Shown in pieces: positions 30,407 to 52,955 of a DNA stretch of 64,000 bases. Below the pieces are notes generated by a model, which was not told the DNA's origin, ran no database searches, and saw only the letters and a program-made list of their open reading frames with translations. A program made the translations under genes and the position numbers. The stretch is from Desulfobacterales bacterium (GTDB lineage Bacteria > Desulfobacterota > Desulfobacteria > Desulfobacterales > JAHEIW01): the NCBI GenBank assembly GCA_050116835.1, contig JASFNW010000003.1:6483-70482 (forward strand), written 5' to 3'. The first letter of the stretch is position 1. Every line of letters starts with the position of its first letter.

Positions 30407-30503
30407 AAACGCAATATCCATTAACTCATTCCAATTTAATTTAATCAATTATGTTTTAACCATTAATTTTGTTAAGAAATGAGGGATTTTTTTGATCAGC
30501 AAG

Positions 30504-30563
30504 GCCGCACAAGGGTTTATGCCTGAGGCGTACTTACAGTACGTTGAAGGCATAAACCCGCGG
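30504..30563. repeat. nested hairpin element 3' of the FadB-like gene
   Basis: GGGTTTATGCCT (30513-30524) pairs with AGGCATAAACCC (30548-30559). An inner CGTAC/GTACG stem closes a TTACA loop. Confidence 0.55.
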
Positions 30564-30597
30564 AGAACACCGCCCATCGGAAAATTAGCCATTTCCA

Positions 30598-33003
30598 TTA
30601 ATTCCTGAGGGGTTTGCCGGTGGTGAGCATATGATCAATGCGCGCCAGCGTTTTTTCCTCTTTTAACAGGTCAATGAAAACTTCACGCTCCAAGGTCAGG
30701 ATCACATCTTCATCCACTTTGGCATTATCCCGCACGTCTCCGCCGCCGATCACATAGGCAATCTTTTTGGCCAGAAACGCATCATACTCGGATATAAACT
30801 TACCGCTGAGCATATTGGACACTTCCGCAGCGACCATTCCCTGGGCGGCCTGACCCAGGACTTTTACCGGGCGTTTTAGCGGCGGCGCATAGCCTTCGTC
30901 CACCATCTTCAAGACTTCCTTTTTAGCCTCGCCGATCAGATAGTCGCGATTAAAAACGATGCGATCACAGGGACCCAAAAAGCCGTTGGCGCGGGCATCG
31001 GCCGCCGAGGTCGTCACTTTGGCCATGGCGATCGCCATAAACACCGGGAGGAAAAATTTGGCCAGATCAAAATCGGTTACCACCGCGGGCAAAGCGCTCA
31101 TGCATTTTTTCATCAGGTTCAAGCAGCCGCCACCGGCCGGAATCAGGCCGACGCCGATTTCCACCTGCCCCATATACAGTTCGGCATGGGCGACAATCTT
31201 ATCCGCCGCCAGGCAAACCTCGCAGCCCCCGCCCAGTGTCAAGCCATAGGGCGCCGCCACGAACGGAAACGGCGCGTAGCGCAACTCCTGAAGACCGTAC
31301 TGTAAATTTTTAATCAGTGTATCGATATCCGCATAGCGATTGGCCTTGGCCGCTGTGCTCATGTCGGCCAGGTTGGCTCCGGCAGAAAAGGCGCCCGGCA
31401 TGCCGCCGGCCTGGTTGCCGATGACCAGTCCGATTCCCTCGCGATCGACAAATTCTCTGGCAGAATGAAGCGCTTCGACAATTTGCTGATTCAATGAATT
31501 CATTTTGGTGTGAAACTCGAGACCGAAAACCCCGTCGTCAAGGTCGATCAGGGATGCGGATTCAGAGTTTTGAACGACCTTATTCTGCGCCTTCAAAGCG
31601 GCCAGGGAAATGATATTGGGGCTGACCACCTTTTCCTGATAACTTTCGGATTCAAAATCGTAGAAAAACACGGCGCCGTTTTCCATTTTGTAAAAAGCGG
31701 TGTGTCCGGCCGCGAGCATCTTCTTCACTTTTGGCGGCACCTTAAATCCATCCGCTTCCATACGGGCAGCCGATTTTTGCAGACCGATGGCATCCCAGGT
31801 TTCAAACGGCCCCATCTCCAGATTGAATCCCCAGCGCATGGCATTGTCAATCTCCACGATGGTCTCGGCAATTTCCGGAATTCGGTTGGCTGCATAGATC
31901 AGGTTGTTGGCCACCGCTTTCCAGGCAAAACGGGCGCCCCTGTCTTCGCCATAGATAACAGCCTTCATCTTTTCGGGTAAAGTGGCGGCTTTTTGGGCTT
32001 CCGCCAAACACGGCAAATCCACCGGTTGGGCCTCTTCGTACTCAAATGTTTCCGGATTCAGGACTTTGCGGATTTTTTGCCAGTCCGGTGTCAGTTCGGT
32101 TTTATAGAAGCCGCTCTGACTCTTTTTGCCCAGCAGGTTCTTTTCGATCATGGTATTCACAAATTCCGGCAGGACAAAGCTGTCCCGATCCTCATCATGG
32201 GCAATCAGCTCGTAGGTATTTTTCGCCACATGCGCCAGGGTATCCAGACCAACGATATCGGCCGTTTTAAACATTCCGGTGCGCGGTCGGCCCATGACCG
32301 GTCCAAAGAGGGCGTCCACCTCCGGAATGGATACTTCCTCATCGAGCATCAGCTGCATCACTTTGACCATGGCCTGCACGCCGATGCGATTGCCGACAAA
32401 ATTCGGCGTGTCCTTGGCCCAAACAATGCCCTTGCCCAGAATCCGTTCTCCAAAATCGGCCATAAAGTCCAGGATCTCAGGCAGGGTTTCTTCACCCGGT
32501 ATGATTTCCAACAACTTCATATAGCGCACCGGGTTAAAAAAATGGGTCCCCAAGAAATGCTGTTTAAAGGCCTTACCGCGACCTTTGGACATGGCTTTTA
32601 AGGGGATGCCGGACGTATTGGAGGAAACGATACTATCTTTTTTTCGTACCGGTTCGATGCGCTTAAACAGATCCTGCTTGATTTTTAAATTTTCGACGAC
32701 AACTTCAACGATCCAATCGCATTCGGCAATTTTGTCAAAATCATCCGCCAGGTTACCAATTGAAATGCGCTTGGCATCCTGGGGGGACATGAACAGAGCA
32801 GGTTTATTTGCCAGAGCCGCATCCAAACCGGCCTTAACGATGCGATTGCGGGCCACCGGATCATTTTTTTCTTCCTCTTTTAAGTCCGGGGGAACAATAT
32901 CCAGCAGTAGTGTTTTTATTCCGGTTCCGGCCAGCAGCGCGGCAATGCCGCCCCCCATAATTCCGGAACCGATCACTGCGGCCAATCTGATCTTCCTTGG
33001 CAT
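30598..33003 (-). CDS. bifunctional 3-hydroxyacyl-CoA dehydrogenase / enoyl-CoA hydratase (FadB/FadJ-like, HAD domain N-terminal)
   Basis: 801 aa with an N-terminal GSGIMGGGIA NAD fold and a C-terminal crotonase-fold segment. A GAGGAGGAGG SD lies upstream. Confidence 0.9.
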   Translation of the reverse strand: MPRKIRLAAVIGSGIMGGGIAALLAGTGIKTLLLDIVPPDLKEEEKNDPVARNRIVKAGLDAALANKPALFMSPQDAKRISIGNLADDFDKIAECDWIVEVVVENLKIKQDLFKRIEPVRKKDSIVSSNTSGIPLKAMSKGRGKAFKQHFLGTHFFNPVRYMKLLEIIPGEETLPEILDFMADFGERILGKGIVWAKDTPNFVGNRIGVQAMVKVMQLMLDEEVSIPEVDALFGPVMGRPRTGMFKTADIVGLDTLAHVAKNTYELIAHDEDRDSFVLPEFVNTMIEKNLLGKKSQSGFYKTELTPDWQKIRKVLNPETFEYEEAQPVDLPCLAEAQKAATLPEKMKAVIYGEDRGARFAWKAVANNLIYAANRIPEIAETIVEIDNAMRWGFNLEMGPFETWDAIGLQKSAARMEADGFKVPPKVKKMLAAGHTAFYKMENGAVFFYDFESESYQEKVVSPNIISLAALKAQNKVVQNSESASLIDLDDGVFGLEFHTKMNSLNQQIVEALHSAREFVDREGIGLVIGNQAGGMPGAFSAGANLADMSTAAKANRYADIDTLIKNLQYGLQELRYAPFPFVAAPYGLTLGGGCEVCLAADKIVAHAELYMGQVEIGVGLIPAGGGCLNLMKKCMSALPAVVTDFDLAKFFLPVFMAIAMAKVTTSAADARANGFLGPCDRIVFNRDYLIGEAKKEVLKMVDEGYAPPLKRPVKVLGQAAQGMVAAEVSNMLSGKFISEYDAFLAKKIAYVIGGGDVRDNAKVDEDVILTLEREVFIDLLKEEKTLARIDHMLTTGKPLRN

Positions 33004-34267: not shown

Positions 34268-36091
34268 TTACTCCTTGTCTTGCTGTATTTGCTCTAATAA
34301 GGCGACAGCTGATGTATTTGCCGGATTGATATCAATCGCCCGTCTGAGATTTTTAACACACTGGCTGCGTTCGCCCATCTGCTCCTGCACCATGGCAAGA
34401 TTAAACAAGGCCTCATCAAGGAAATCCGGTTCCAGTTTCACAACCCGTGCGTACATTTCTTTGGCCTGCGGGAAATCTTCAATGGTTGCATAGATGTATC
34501 CGAGGTTAAAAAAAGACTCCGGACGAAGCGGTTCCAGCTCGGCAGCCTTACGGTAGCTGGCGATCGCTCGTGGAAAATCGTTTTCAGAAACGTAGACGTA
34601 TCCAAGATTTAACAGGGCCGGAACGCTGTCAGGCTCAAATTCCAGCGCTCTGAGAAGGGCGCTTTTGGCCGATGGTGGATCCGTTGCGAGTAACTCTTCA
34701 GCCATGCCTTGTAAAGCGGCTGAAAAGTCTGCTGAAAATTCACGCAGCGCAGAAGGCTCCGCAGCCAGCACCGATTCAAACAGTGCTACAGCCGAGGCAA
34801 ATTGCCTGGCCTCAAGCGCTTGCCGGGCGGTCTTGATTTGTTCATCGGCAGGGTTCGTCGCCGGCTTCGGGGTGGTTAGGACCAGCGAATATGCCGCAAC
34901 CGACCGGTCTGAAGGGGTAAACGGCAATTCGGCCAGACTGAGATTAAAGACGATGCCCAAAATAACCAGCACCGCAGCCGGCGTAAAACGCCAGAGGGTT
35001 TGTTGAAACGGGGACGGTTGTAATGCGGCCGCCGGTTGGGTTTCCGGTAGAAAAACGGTACTGCCGGTATTGTCACTATCGCGTGAAGAGGCGTGGTTGT
35101 CCAGTGACGGCAGGACGCTTTCGACCTGCTTGTTGGTCCACAGAGCGCTTTCTTCTACGGCAAACTCTTCTTTGAAAAAATCTTTGATAAAACTGGCAAA
35201 GCTTCGGCTGTTGGGTCGCACAGACAGCTCAAAAATGCATTCCTCTATTTCGGCTAGCATCTGGCCGCAGGTCTGATAGCGTTCGTCGGGTTCTTTCGCA
35301 AGCGCCCGGTCGACGACGGCATAAAGTTTATCGGGAAGGTCAGGCCGCAGCTTTTTCAGCGGCGTGAACTGCGCCTCGCGCACCTGGCTGTATATGTGCA
35401 TGGTTTCGCCTTCAAACATTTTTCGGCCTGCTATCAATTCATACAATATGATGCCGGTGGAAAAGATGTCCGAGCGGTGGTCGATGACGTGGCCCATGGC
35501 CTGCTCCGGCGACATATAGGCAATTTTGCCTTTAATCAAGCCTTCATGGGTGGTGCTATTATGACTGGCAGCTTTGGCGATGCCGAAATCGATGATTTTC
35601 ACCTGTCCTTCATATGTCAGAAAGATATTTTGGGGGTTGATATCTCGATGAATGATATTCAGGGGTTTACCTTGCAGGTCCCTGAGTTTATGAGAATAAT
35701 CAAGCCCGGTACAAATGCGCGAAACAATGTAAAGCGCGCTTTCAAGATCCAGCGAACGACCACATTTTCTGAGCTTGTGGATCAGTTTGCGTAAATCTTT
35801 GCCGAAAAGATATTCCATGGCGATGAAGTATTCGCCGTCAATACTGCCAAAATCATAAATCTGGATGATGTTTTCATGCTGAAGCAGGGCGGCCAGTTTG
35901 GCCTCATCAATAAACGCCTTGACCAGATTGCCTTCACCGGAGAGGTGCGGCAGTATTTTTTTGATCGCAACACGTTTCTCAAAGCCGTGATCGCGGGTGA
36001 CGTTGGCGCGATACAGTTCGGCCATACCCCCCACAGCAATTTTTTGCAGCAGCTGGTATTTGCCGAATTGTTGGGTCTTAAGGTCTTTCAT
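34268..36091 (-). CDS. Hanks-type Ser/Thr protein kinase with TM segment and C-terminal TPR repeats
   Basis: Contains VAIKKI, HRDINPQNIF, DFGIAKA and YMSPEQ motifs, with TPR-like repeats in the C-terminal third. Confidence 0.9.
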   Translation of the reverse strand: MKDLKTQQFGKYQLLQKIAVGGMAELYRANVTRDHGFEKRVAIKKILPHLSGEGNLVKAFIDEAKLAALLQHENIIQIYDFGSIDGEYFIAMEYLFGKDLRKLIHKLRKCGRSLDLESALYIVSRICTGLDYSHKLRDLQGKPLNIIHRDINPQNIFLTYEGQVKIIDFGIAKAASHNSTTHEGLIKGKIAYMSPEQAMGHVIDHRSDIFSTGIILYELIAGRKMFEGETMHIYSQVREAQFTPLKKLRPDLPDKLYAVVDRALAKEPDERYQTCGQMLAEIEECIFELSVRPNSRSFASFIKDFFKEEFAVEESALWTNKQVESVLPSLDNHASSRDSDNTGSTVFLPETQPAAALQPSPFQQTLWRFTPAAVLVILGIVFNLSLAELPFTPSDRSVAAYSLVLTTPKPATNPADEQIKTARQALEARQFASAVALFESVLAAEPSALREFSADFSAALQGMAEELLATDPPSAKSALLRALEFEPDSVPALLNLGYVYVSENDFPRAIASYRKAAELEPLRPESFFNLGYIYATIEDFPQAKEMYARVVKLEPDFLDEALFNLAMVQEQMGERSQCVKNLRRAIDINPANTSAVALLEQIQQDKE

Positions 36092-36283
36092 CTGAAAAAT
36101 GATTCCTCAATTTTGGATCACATGTGCCGCTGGTGTGGTTTTGGCACTCCGCAAGAGGTGTGCGCCCTCCACCTGAATTTGGCGCTTCTGTTTCATCAAC
36201 CTGAAATCTGGCATGTATATCGGCCGTTTGGCCGGAATACTTGAATGGCGGGATGAGGCCATTATCTGTCGTCGACCTTAAGA

Positions 36284-36375
36284 CTTAGGTGCCCACCATC
36301 CCAAATATCGGGTCACTGGGTTGCTTGCGGGTAATCCATCTGCATATCGCCTATCAGAAAAAAACATGGCCTTTC
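36284..36375. repeat. ~90-nt MITE-like repeat (copy 1)
   Basis: CTTAGGTGC..CATCCCAAATATCGGGTCACTGGG....GCATATCGCCTATCAGAAAAAAACATGGCC aligns with 52771-52861 (inverted) and 52891-52955 (direct). Confidence 0.65.
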
Positions 36376-36438
36376 TTCTAATTAAATGATGCCCCTGTCC
36401 TAAATTATTTTCGTAATTTTTTTAGTTAATATAAATGT

Positions 36439-36582
36439 AAACCCATCTCAAAAATAGTAGATCACACCCAAGGGCAAGGCGAAAATCGATTCAAAAGCGG
36501 AGCATACACGTCAGTATTCGAGCATTTTGAATCGGTTTTTAAAGCAGCCCTTGGGCGTTAGATACATTTTTGAGGTGGGTTT
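36439..36582. repeat. nested long hairpin abutting the stop codon of the S1P-lyase-like gene
   Basis: The outer arm 36439-36475 pairs with 36547-36582. An inner AAAATCGATTCAAAA/TTTTGAATCGGTTTT stem encloses an apical ATAC-ACGTCA-GTAT hairpin. Confidence 0.6.
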
Positions 36583-38109
36583 TTAGAGTTTGTAGAGCAG
36601 GTCGATATACCGCTTCAACAAATCCCCCACCAGGCTGCGCACAGGCAGATTGGCCCCCAGGCCGTAGATGGGCGCCATCGTTCCGGATGAATCGGGATTC
36701 TCACGCACATGATCAACTGCGGCCTTTAAATCATGAATAAATCGTTCGGTCACTCCCGGCTGGGTATGCCGCAGGGTTACGCACAGGTGAACGCAGGCAG
36801 GATGGTGGAGACCGTTTAGACTCCAGCCCCGAGAAGATAGATAATCCATGATCTGATAAATATCCAACGTCTTGGAACCGAAAGCGATGACCCATAGCGG
36901 ATCTCCCAGAATGTACACTTCGGGAATATCTTGAATCCCATTTTTTATTCTGGCGGCGGCTTCCAATATTTGCTGGGTAGCTGCTAAATAGCCGTCTTTG
37001 CCGATTTTGACCATTGCGGCCCAGCAGGCGGCGCTTAAGGCTCCCGGTCGACTGCCGGCGAAAGTTGGTGAAAAATAAAGCCCCCCGGGCCATTCCGTTG
37101 TCGCAAAATACTGATAGCGGCGCAACGTCGGATTCCGATATAAGATGACGGAGGTTCCTTTGGCTGCAAAACCATATTTATGCGTGTCGGCCGAGATGGA
37201 TGTCACTCCGGGTAATCGAAAGTCGAACAACGGAACCGCATAGCCCAATTGTTCGGCCCATGGCAAAACAAAGCCACCCAGGCAGGCATCAGTGTGAAAC
37301 CCGATGCCCTTTTCTCTGGCCAGCTCGGACAGTTCCTCAATTGGATCCACCACGCCGTGGGGAAAGCAAGGCGCCGATCCGATCAGCAGGATGGTATGCT
37401 GCGTGAGGGCATCGCGGGCTGCCGTTACATCGGCCCGATAATCGGCGCCCACCGGGATGCGTTTAATTTTGATTTGAAAATACTCTGCCGCTTTATCAAA
37501 GGCAGCATGTGCGCTGACGGGCACAATCATCTCTGGCCGCGTAACATGTTTTTGATCGCGGGCCCAATCGCGATACGTTTTCATCGCCAGCAAGATACTT
37601 TCGGTGCCGCCGGATGTTACAACACCGCAGATCTCTCGATCCGGATCCGTTGCGGCCGCCTGCGGATCGGCACCCAGCATCCTGGCGGTCATGGACACAA
37701 TCTCTGATTCGTACTTGGCGCTGCTGGGCCATAGATCGGTGTGCAGGGGATTGCTCTGGGAGTTTAACATATAAACCTGGTCTAAAAAATCAATGTGGGC
37801 TGCATCGCCGTGGTAAACAGCCCCTGAGGCATAGCCGTCTTTCCATTTAGACTGCTCCAGATCAGACAGGGCTCGCATTTCCTCTAAAATGGCTGACGCT
37901 TCGCGGCCCGTGTCCGGTATGGCGGCATAGGTGTCAAATTGCTGCCGATAGGGCTTAACGACCGTTTCAAGATCGTGCAGCAGGTGGTCGAATTCTTGTT
38001 CTACCTTTCGTTCGACCGCTGGCAGGTTTTTGAGTCGATTGAAAATCCAGGTCGCAATGCGGGGATTGAGCCTTCCGAGAATGCCTTCGTTGAGTTTTTT
38101 GATGTCCAT
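36583..38109 (-). CDS. PLP-dependent group II decarboxylase-fold enzyme, sphingosine-1-phosphate lyase-like
   Basis: 508 aa with [12 protein letters not shown] and [22 protein letters not shown]...[15 protein letters not shown]. These motifs closely resemble the eukaryotic SGPL1/Dpl1 signature as recalled. Confidence 0.8.
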
Positions 38110-52770: not shown

Positions 52771-52955
52771 CAAAGGGCATGTTTCTTTCTGAAAGGCGAT
52801 ATGCGGATAACAACCCACAAAGTGCCCAGTGGCCCGATATTTAGGATGATCTGCACCTAAGCCATTGGGTTATGAACCACTGCAAATCGAATCCCAAATA
52901 TCGGGCCACCGGTAATTTGCCAATCATATCGCCTTGAAGAAAATGACATGCCCGG
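52771..52955. repeat. head-to-head pair of the ~90-nt MITE-like repeat
   Basis: 52771-52861 is a reverse-complement copy of 36284-36375. 52891-52955 is a direct partial copy (ATCCCAAATATCGGGCCACCGG...ATCATATCGCCTTGAAGAAAATGACATGCCC). Confidence 0.65.

Follow-up and report, generated by a model that had tools for sequence, protein, structure and literature searches.

The window, a stretch of 64,000 nucleotides from the draft genome of a member of the Desulfobacterales, carries on its minus strand a gene (36583-38109) for a PLP-dependent decarboxylase-like protein of 508 amino acids (Pyridoxal_deC, 3.9e-14). The nearest NCBIfam model of this open reading frame is the MfnA-type tyrosine decarboxylase, with a score below the cut-off. 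A 490-nt spacer lies upstream of the Ser/Thr-kinase/LysM genes, and its gene-proximal end is occupied by a nested palindrome that had been predicted at 36439-36582. All arms were found as placed in that prediction. The outer arms at 36439-36475 and 36547-36582 are 94% complementary over 36439-36455/36566-36582, a second stem at 36482-36496/36525-36539 is 93% complementary, and the apical hairpin ATAC-ACGTCA-GTAT occupies 36504-36517. Folding of 166 nt around the palindrome gave a single long hairpin on either strand, with -73.4 kcal/mol (z -11.9) on the plus strand and -62.6 kcal/mol (z -9.4) on the minus strand, and the native folding energy of the region was matched by none of 200 shuffles. 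The right arm had been said to end at the base before a TAA stop codon on the complementary strand, and indeed the TTA at 36583-36585, which starts one base past the arm, is the reverse complement of the TAA of the decarboxylase frame. No open reading frame of 60 or more amino acids overlaps the palindrome.

Iterated nhmmer searches in the window's own 5.18-Mb draft genome (G000) returned 96 merged loci, 57 of them full length, of a dispersed, non-coding hairpin unit of about 150 nt. At the level of BLAST, matches were present in 21 of 21 genomes of the genus, in all three of a sister genus and, within the order, in several further families. With a covariance model based on 33 copies, the search was extended to 150 other sampled genomes across the phylum; 23 of them, from 20 of 111 genera, gave full-length matches. 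Rfam gave no match across the whole window apart from chance-level ones with E values of 6-10. Pairwise identity of the copies within the genome has a median of 65% and a maximum of 98%; the window copy is 92% identical to its best match in its own genome and 94% identical to the orthologue in the sister genome G021. The arms thus recur as a repeat family, as had been proposed for checking, and the palindrome is neither unique nor poorly conserved, two of the properties that had been named as speaking against it. The 96 loci and the genus-wide matches support the suggestion of a recurrent structured element at gene ends. In a distant relative from the same phylum with a complete genome, head-to-tail arrays of the family were seen at G118:C1:897170-900319 (L192) and at other places. 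The arrays have a period of about 355 nt, of which 150 nt are the element and about 205 nt a repeated spacer, and the strand of the element switches between the chromosome halves.

The ends of the unit were set by comparison with the 57 full copies and by an empty-site comparison at another copy. Aligned with their flanks, the full copies read TA-(G/A)AAnnnn-[126-nt core]-nnnnTT(C/T)-TA. Applied to the window copy, this family comparison refines the limits, which run from the TA at 36438-36439 to the TA at 36584-36585. The whole element with both flanking TAs (36438-36585, plus strand) matches the family HMM and the covariance model (C3:42917-43068, 153.6 bits). Its left, distal outer arm (36440-36475, plus strand) holds the variable outermost stem and a conserved TAGAT internal-loop motif, the right, gene-proximal outer arm spans 36547-36583 (plus strand), and the inner stem AAAATCGATTCAAAA / TTTTGAATCGGTTTT encloses the apex (36482-36539, plus strand). 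The apex of the window copy is GGAGCATACACGTCAGTATTCGAGCATT, that of the family consensus GGAGCGTACACGATAGTACGCGAGCATT. The proximal TA (36584-36585, minus strand) forms the first two bases of the TAA stop at 36583-36585, with 36583 as the terminal base of the element, and the distal TA (36438-36439, plus strand) is the other copy of the presumed TA target duplication. The flanking TA of the element is thus the TA of the decarboxylase stop codon, and the first base of the element itself is the third base of that stop.

Within the family, conservation is highest at the apex and lowest at the ends. The outermost stem varies among copies, yet it is complementary inside each copy. The consensus structure has 45 pairs, with 95.8% of the cells paired, and 35 of the 45 pairs have changed on both sides, compared with 20.5 +/- 1.9 in column shuffles and 11-23 in structures slid by 1-3 columns. 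Covariation extends along the whole length of the element and the internal loops are conserved. Compensated changes were also found in place at the same locus: the window copy has AAAAAC/ATTTT where G021 has AAGAAC/GTTCT, and in subfamily B at the decarboxylase locus ACGGGTCT/AGACCCGT stands against ACTGGCCT/AGGCCAGT. A hypervariability of the outer stem was considered for subfamily A, where one pair of copies with 98% identical cores has different, compensated outer stems; with n=11 this pair does not stand out and is suggestive only.

The two strands of the element are not equivalent. On the better-folding strand, which served as the model strand, G.U pairs number 210 against 24 A.C mismatches in a 49-copy alignment, and the consensus energy is -40.8 as against -25.5 on the other strand. 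Copy by copy, the model strand has the lower folding energy in 56 of the 57 full copies, with a mean of -71.5 vs -59.2 kcal/mol. The structure is kept on one strand only, and this strand is antisense to the docked gene. At the window copy it is the plus strand, antisense to the decarboxylase.

Insertion was assessed by comparing filled and empty sites between sister species. A non-docked copy at G000:C80:9056, 12 nt upstream of a ribosome-binding site, reads GGTTTC-TA-[GAAGTTATC...GATAACTTC]-TA-ATAATA with the ends GAAG...CTTC, and the empty site in G020 and G021 reads GGTTTC-TA-ATATTC. In G012 an apparent remnant of 9 nt is present at this site. A docked copy at C26:6205 is shared with G016 and missing in G020, G015 and G012; in the filled genomes the protein ends one codon earlier (TCT-TAG), and the distal junction CTA-G is compatible with a TA duplication at TAG. 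The C12 and C83 loci are likewise compatible with a TA duplication, and the C41 locus has three empty orthologues and degenerate ends. Taken together, these site comparisons, of which C80:9056 is the only fully clean one, are read as showing that insertion duplicates a TA and that the family has been gained or lost between sister species.

The position of the copies relative to genes was counted against 3982 crude genes (open reading frames of at least 120 codons). A gene 3' end was found at the same element end in 46 of the 57 full copies. In 38 of these 46 the distance from the stop to the 126-nt core is 8-12 nt, which makes the stop codon the last trinucleotide of the outer stem, and in four more the stop is formed by an inner TTTTA. 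Overall, the terminal TA(G/A) serves as the stop of a real gene in 42-46 of the 57 full copies. At the opposite end of the element a gene tail lies within 20 nt in only 2 of the 57. Partial copies dock in the same way in 17 of 39 cases, many of these being solo proximal arms; many degraded copies have kept the proximal arm alone and still sit on the stop. The docked stops are TAA in 33, TAG in 10 and TGA in one case, compared with 46/23/30% genome-wide. Of 23 docked copies inspected by eye, about 21 have a third stop base that is paired with the final base of the distal arm; this base therefore belongs to the element. The 15 non-docked copies occur in either orientation relative to local transcription, and at least eight copies sit 12-40 nt upstream of a co-directional next gene. 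An orientation set by the replication strand, as in IS200/IS605-type elements, was not borne out by local GC skew (50:33, 60%, the same as for all genes), a weak test in a draft genome. Nor does the original third stop base always follow the distal TA: a purine is found there in only about 50-57% of the copies, below the expectation for an unchanged entry into TAA or TAG. No published description of an exact docking on stop codons with a locked orientation was found in the literature searched, and the words "stop codon" and "orientation" are absent from a 2024 review of prokaryotic MITEs.

The stop codon of the decarboxylase has been used more than once. In 13 sister genomes the C terminus of the protein is conserved or near-identical, irrespective of the element that follows. 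The subfamily of the window element is found at this stop in G000 and G021 only, and a different subfamily is found on the same stop in G012, G020, G015, G016, G008 and G019. Degenerate or other hairpins follow the stop in G018, G005, G009 and G013, and no member of the hairpin family was found after the gene in G014 and G003. Nearly every orthologue of the decarboxylase is followed by some long hairpin, the families differing. At the C12 locus the corresponding stop, TAG in G000, is TAA in G012 and carries there a palindrome of about 150 nt (TAATTTCCTGTCTGG...CCAGACAGGAAATTA) that looks unrelated. At the C37 locus the same stop carries a member of another hairpin family, that of the element at 30496-30600, in G016 and a 20-nt proximal remnant only in G012. 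The same stop codon is in this way used by different families in sister species at three loci. Elements that differ in kind also differ in their outer stems when they share a stop; these stems are hence carried along by the element and do not derive from the target by copying. Turnover at the same stops further shows that which stop codon is present depends on the element's end. The possibility that the outer stem is an inverted copy of the target or of the last codons was also dismissed because the palindrome stops at the stop codon and the same outer stem is found at different loci. The window element probably entered the TA of the decarboxylase stop and replaced an older element there.

Gene order breaks exactly at the window element (L019-L031 vs window 36092-36438); the DNA downstream of the decarboxylase can be aligned only between G000 and G021, and the other sister genomes have unrelated sequence past their element. 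In the orthologue of the gene docked at G000:C83:13663 (G012:C168, L241) the usual stop is missing, with CCT GAA for CCT TAA, and the reading frame extends by about 10 codons into AACGGGC-type repeats, which are another repeat family.

The original prediction had also held that the architecture matches two other elements of the window, at 1942-2162 and 30504-30563. This was correct in kind, as all three belong to palindromic repeat families with antisense-strand folding, and incorrect in sequence: the elements near 1931-2165 and 30496-30600 are not members of the family by sequence, and the family has a single match on this contig. The element at 30496-30600, referred to as the "30504" element, follows a minus-strand gene with its stop at 30598-30600 and represents a family of 19 loci. 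Its full unit starts on TAA or TAG, the outer stem varies, and the apex reads GTAC-N5-GTAC. In 17 of 18 near-full copies a stop is found 23-42 nt away from the core, on the same side and in one orientation, and folding favours the strand antisense to the docked genes in 18 of 18 copies. The "1942" element (1931-2165), a 222-nt structured insert, represents a third dispersed family of 26 loci. A gene stop lies 1-11 nt from one end in seven of its copies, and in 17 of 17 copies greater stability is found on the same strand, the one antisense to the docked genes. The "30504" family docks as the family of the palindrome does, and the "1942" family does so in part.

Two repeats that do not form a full-length hairpin served as controls. 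A 104-nt TA-flanked repeat with the ends TATAGTCGTTGTCAAAAAA...GACAAGCGGTATA (66 loci, one at L004:1839-1950, G000:C12) showed no docking and a mild skew in the end that faces a gene tail (22 vs 35); no DDE_3 gene as a partner of this repeat was found in five sister genomes. An 87-nt repeat with the conserved CATCCCAAATATCGG...GGCATATCGCCTATCAGAAAATAACATG, present in the window at 36284-36375 and 52771-52861 and at 52 loci in all, showed neither docking nor orientation bias; it does not resemble a MITE flanked by TA and may represent a promoter or leader module. Neither repeat has a consistent strand asymmetry in folding. As these non-hairpin repeats are undocked, docking is not a general outcome of TA targeting and selection and goes with the hairpin families.

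Judged on sequence, the element would fall under a broad definition of MITEs: it is short (<300 bp), non-coding and multicopy, has terminal inverted repeats, and shows TA duplication and presence/absence between genomes. The terminal repeats, (TA)(G/A)AAnnnn...nnnnTT(C/T)(TA), are complementary within each copy and less conserved than the centre, which is atypical, and a related autonomous insertion sequence with the same ends was not found. A close likeness in these respects is to the Correia elements of Neisseria (CREE/NEMIS), which are also non-coding and multicopy, measure about 105-155 bp, form a long hairpin, duplicate a TA, lie close to genes and are co-transcribed with them, and have no assigned transposase ("orphan" MITE). 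They even share motif words in a similar order, with GTAC-N5-6-GTAC near the centre and CGCCTTG(Y)CC in one arm. The 26-bp ends of Correia elements are conserved, however, whereas here the ends vary and the apex is conserved. The family HMM gave no nhmmer match to 14 real Correia copies from commensal Neisseria with the filters off (--max) and E <= 1000, and the maximal local alignment score of 28 is within the shuffle range (23.8 +/- 2.4). Membership was therefore rejected, as there is no homology to the Correia consensus or its 26-bp inverted repeat, and the motif words remain a lead only. The likeness to Correia elements concerns how the element works and does not amount to membership. To our knowledge, stop-codon docking with a locked orientation has not been reported for Correia elements.

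Other small repeats resemble the element in part. Like REPIN/REP-RAYT systems (PMC3116915, PMC2817692, PMC3733652), it is a dispersed, covarying hairpin repeat with long vertical persistence in a genome that has RAYT-like genes; REPINs are thought to act as single strands (PMC3116915, PMC2817692, PMC3733652). In contrast to these systems, it has no GTAG/CGTC tag, no REP doublet and a TA duplication, and no RAYT gene is flanked by copies. SPRITE, ERIC, RUP and BOX (PMC3049150, PMC2759123) are likewise small structured repeats enriched just 3' of genes. SPRITEs are terminator-like and lie close to 3' ends, mostly within 200 bp (PMC3049150, PMC2759123). These repeats are described near gene ends but not on the stop codon, and their strand distribution mirrors coding bias (~60%); the SPRITE paper and a stem-loop survey report enrichment near 3' ends and no stop-codon docking. 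As to a simple terminator, a scan for intrinsic (Rho-independent) terminators over 35900-36900 found none, and the 150-nt hairpin has about 40% G+C, with some copies in operon-like spacers, which does not fit such a terminator, whose stem is short and G+C-rich with a U tract immediately after it.

The attC sites of integrons, imperfect palindromes of 57-141 nt, follow a gene at its 3' end and have an orientation locked to that gene. Their folded bottom (antisense) strand is the active one, and their sequence is free while the structure is kept. The hairpin family differs in that the gene does not move with the element, no cassette arrays are formed and a TA is duplicated on insertion; its copies are dispersed beside conserved genes, unlike cassette arrays. 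Judged by eye, no R''-L''...L'-R' boxes with an unpaired spacer are present and only AAC...GTT is found at the ends, in a continuous stem, so the element was not classed as an attC site.

A mobilising enzyme was searched for in several ways. Among the family loci of this genome no copy and no arm pair encloses a gene. DDE_3 (IS630-type) is represented in this genome by a 25-bit fragment at a contig end only, and gave no match in five sister genomes, of which three are well assembled (assemblies of 30-80 contigs were included; insertion sequences are often unassembled in drafts). An origin as an IS630/Tc1-mariner-derived MITE was set aside on these grounds: the TA duplication is present, but no host DDE_3 transposase with matching inverted repeats was found. 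The genome has eight paralogous genes for proteins of about 335 amino acids that combine a RAYT-like Y1 (HUH) domain (NF047646, 69.6 bits, below the cut-off) with a C terminus like domain IV of DnaA (DnaA_C), one at G000:C1:5576-6580 (L032:1429-2436) and seven diverged paralogues (L033-L039). Of the 151 genomes sampled in the phylum, 84 have this gene family, frequently as multiple copies. Where the element is present the gene family was counted in 15 of 23 genomes, and where it is absent in 68 of 127; two genomes in which the element scored 12-18 matches each have no Y1 match at E <= 1e-10, and none of the genes is flanked by element copies. The Y1+DnaA_C genes were consequently rejected as the mobiliser, being neither adjacent to copies nor associated with them across the 151 genomes. 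A truncated IntI-like gene of 176 amino acids, the N-terminal half only, lies at G000:C196:4149-4679 (L040:1459-1989) and scores 163.8 bits to TIGR02249 over half the model (cut-off 265). Its 7.8-kb contig ends in a copy of the hairpin element. A link to integrons was rejected, as only this truncated gene is present and no attC array was seen. No reverse transcriptase linked to the hairpin family was found.

We favour, with a probability of about 0.8, the reading that the palindrome is a copy of a non-autonomous, orphan, hairpin-type family of TA-duplicating miniature transposons, a MITE in the broad sense and of the Correia/ERIC kind. The unit proper reads (G/A)AA...TT(C/T), so that when it enters a TAA or TAG stop at its TA, the host TA and the first base of the element rebuild the stop; it would be moved by a transposase acting in trans. 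Transcription of the decarboxylase would then probably run into the window copy, which would form the 3' end of the mRNA and lie upstream of the promoter region for the kinase operon. Speaking against a miniature transposon are the failure to find a transposase with matching ends, the eight Y1 genes that neither lie beside copies nor co-occur with them, the single fully clean empty site, a pattern of variable ends and conserved apex that is unlike classical MITEs, and a one-strand structure for which a double-strand cut-and-paste enzyme has no need. In a rival reading the folded antisense strand itself would be recognised, by an HUH enzyme (RAYT, IS200/IS605-like) or by a tyrosine recombinase as in attC, with directional insertion at gene ends. 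We consider such a single-strand mobilisation unlikely, although the hairpin is maintained on the gene-antisense strand only, with covariation over its full length and conserved internal loops, and the bottom strand of integron attC sites has the same polarity as the folded strand of the family. Two other hairpin families have this polarity and at least one docks alike, eight RAYT-like Y1 genes and a truncated IntI-like gene are present in the genome, and three loci have a stop that is occupied by one family in one species and by another in a sister species. Against it stand the TA duplication observed at C80:9056, the lack of a GTAG/CGTC REP doublet, of R''/R' boxes with an unpaired spacer and of cassette arrays, and the Y1 genes without co-occurrence (15/23 vs 68/127). 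Moreover, the orientation follows the gene and not replication (GC skew of 60%, as for all genes), and non-docked copies lie either way round relative to transcription. We know of no IS200/IS605, RAYT or integron reaction that leaves a TA duplication.

Selection by the host for a gene-end RNA module is in our view still harder to sustain. Copies would then persist because the 3' hairpin of the mRNA stabilises the message or ends transcription, and mobility would be a means of delivery only. The position directly at gene 3' ends, the post-stop long hairpins from different families in nearly all decarboxylase orthologues and the compensated changes between same-locus copies across species agree with this proposal, and parallels are available in SPRITE, REP, ERIC and NEMIS (PMC3049150, PMC1590033). 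Yet the mRNA strand folds worse in 56 of 57 copies, with a G.U pair of the other strand becoming an A.C mismatch in the mRNA. The terminator scan was empty at the window copy, the at least eight copies placed 12-40 nt before a co-directional gene cannot be strong terminators, and stabilisation does not need zero distance to the stop. If the well-folding strand were instead functional as RNA, it could give cis-antisense small RNAs or be an RNA intermediate copied into DNA at stops, with, speculatively, a 3' end ...CUA/...UUA that pairs with UAG/UAA. Conserved wobble pairs, covarying stems and a conserved loop are typical of structured RNAs, the 3'-terminal trinucleotides of this strand complement both stop codons used, and priming on the stop codon would yield both docking and orientation. 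Still, there is no conserved promoter beside the copies, no Rfam match and no linked reverse transcriptase, and the clean TA-duplicated insertion at C80:9056 lies 12 nt upstream of a ribosome-binding site and not at a stop, which leaves an RNA-level element with very little probability. A unique, locus-specific terminator or a chance palindrome, for which nothing speaks beyond the position after a gene, is refuted by the 96 loci in the genome, the matches in genus and phylum and the z values of -9 to -12.

On the reading as a miniature transposon, the preference for stop codons and for one orientation has to be accounted for separately. Biased survival is our tentative answer. Long palindromes in neutral DNA would be lost quickly, whereas imprecise loss of a copy on a stop codon would damage the gene, so that the copy would be locked in; in the opposite orientation, the mRNA would carry a hairpin stronger by about 12 kcal/mol where the ribosome terminates, and such copies would be purged. 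The degraded copies that keep the stop-proximal arm and the non-docked copies in either orientation point in this direction, and a purine after the distal TA in only about 50-57% of copies fits preferential survival where precise excision no longer restores the stop. Against survival alone, stop-codon TAs make up by a rough estimate some 3% of the TA sites in tolerated DNA, so very many insertions would be needed. An insertion mechanism that reads both the strand and the gene end is rated almost as probable, and the remainder falls to other causes. Such a strand-aware insertion is kept alive by the single-strand conservation and the repeated use of the same stops. In its most specific form, an undescribed mechanism would direct hairpin elements to the TA of TAA or TAG stops and so produce docking and orientation in the act of insertion, a proposal that we regard as doubtful; the mechanism may be a single-strand or RNA-templated reaction with a 3' ...CUA/...UUA pairing to the stop, or a coupling to the end of translation or transcription. 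If homing at insertion were true, several unrelated hairpin families would be substrates of one "stop-codon-homing" machinery.

Small palindromic repeats are common in bacteria and are usually described loosely as "near gene ends". The hairpin family sits on stop codons with nucleotide precision, supplies the third stop base, avoids TGA and has its stable strand opposite the mRNA. In practical terms, the elements break assemblies, shift stops by about one codon and mark places where turnover has recurred at gene ends in genomes of uncultured sulfate reducers. If the bias arises at insertion, mobile DNA would have an unknown route to sense the ends of genes; if it arises by survival, a selfish element would persist as part of the stop codon of its host.
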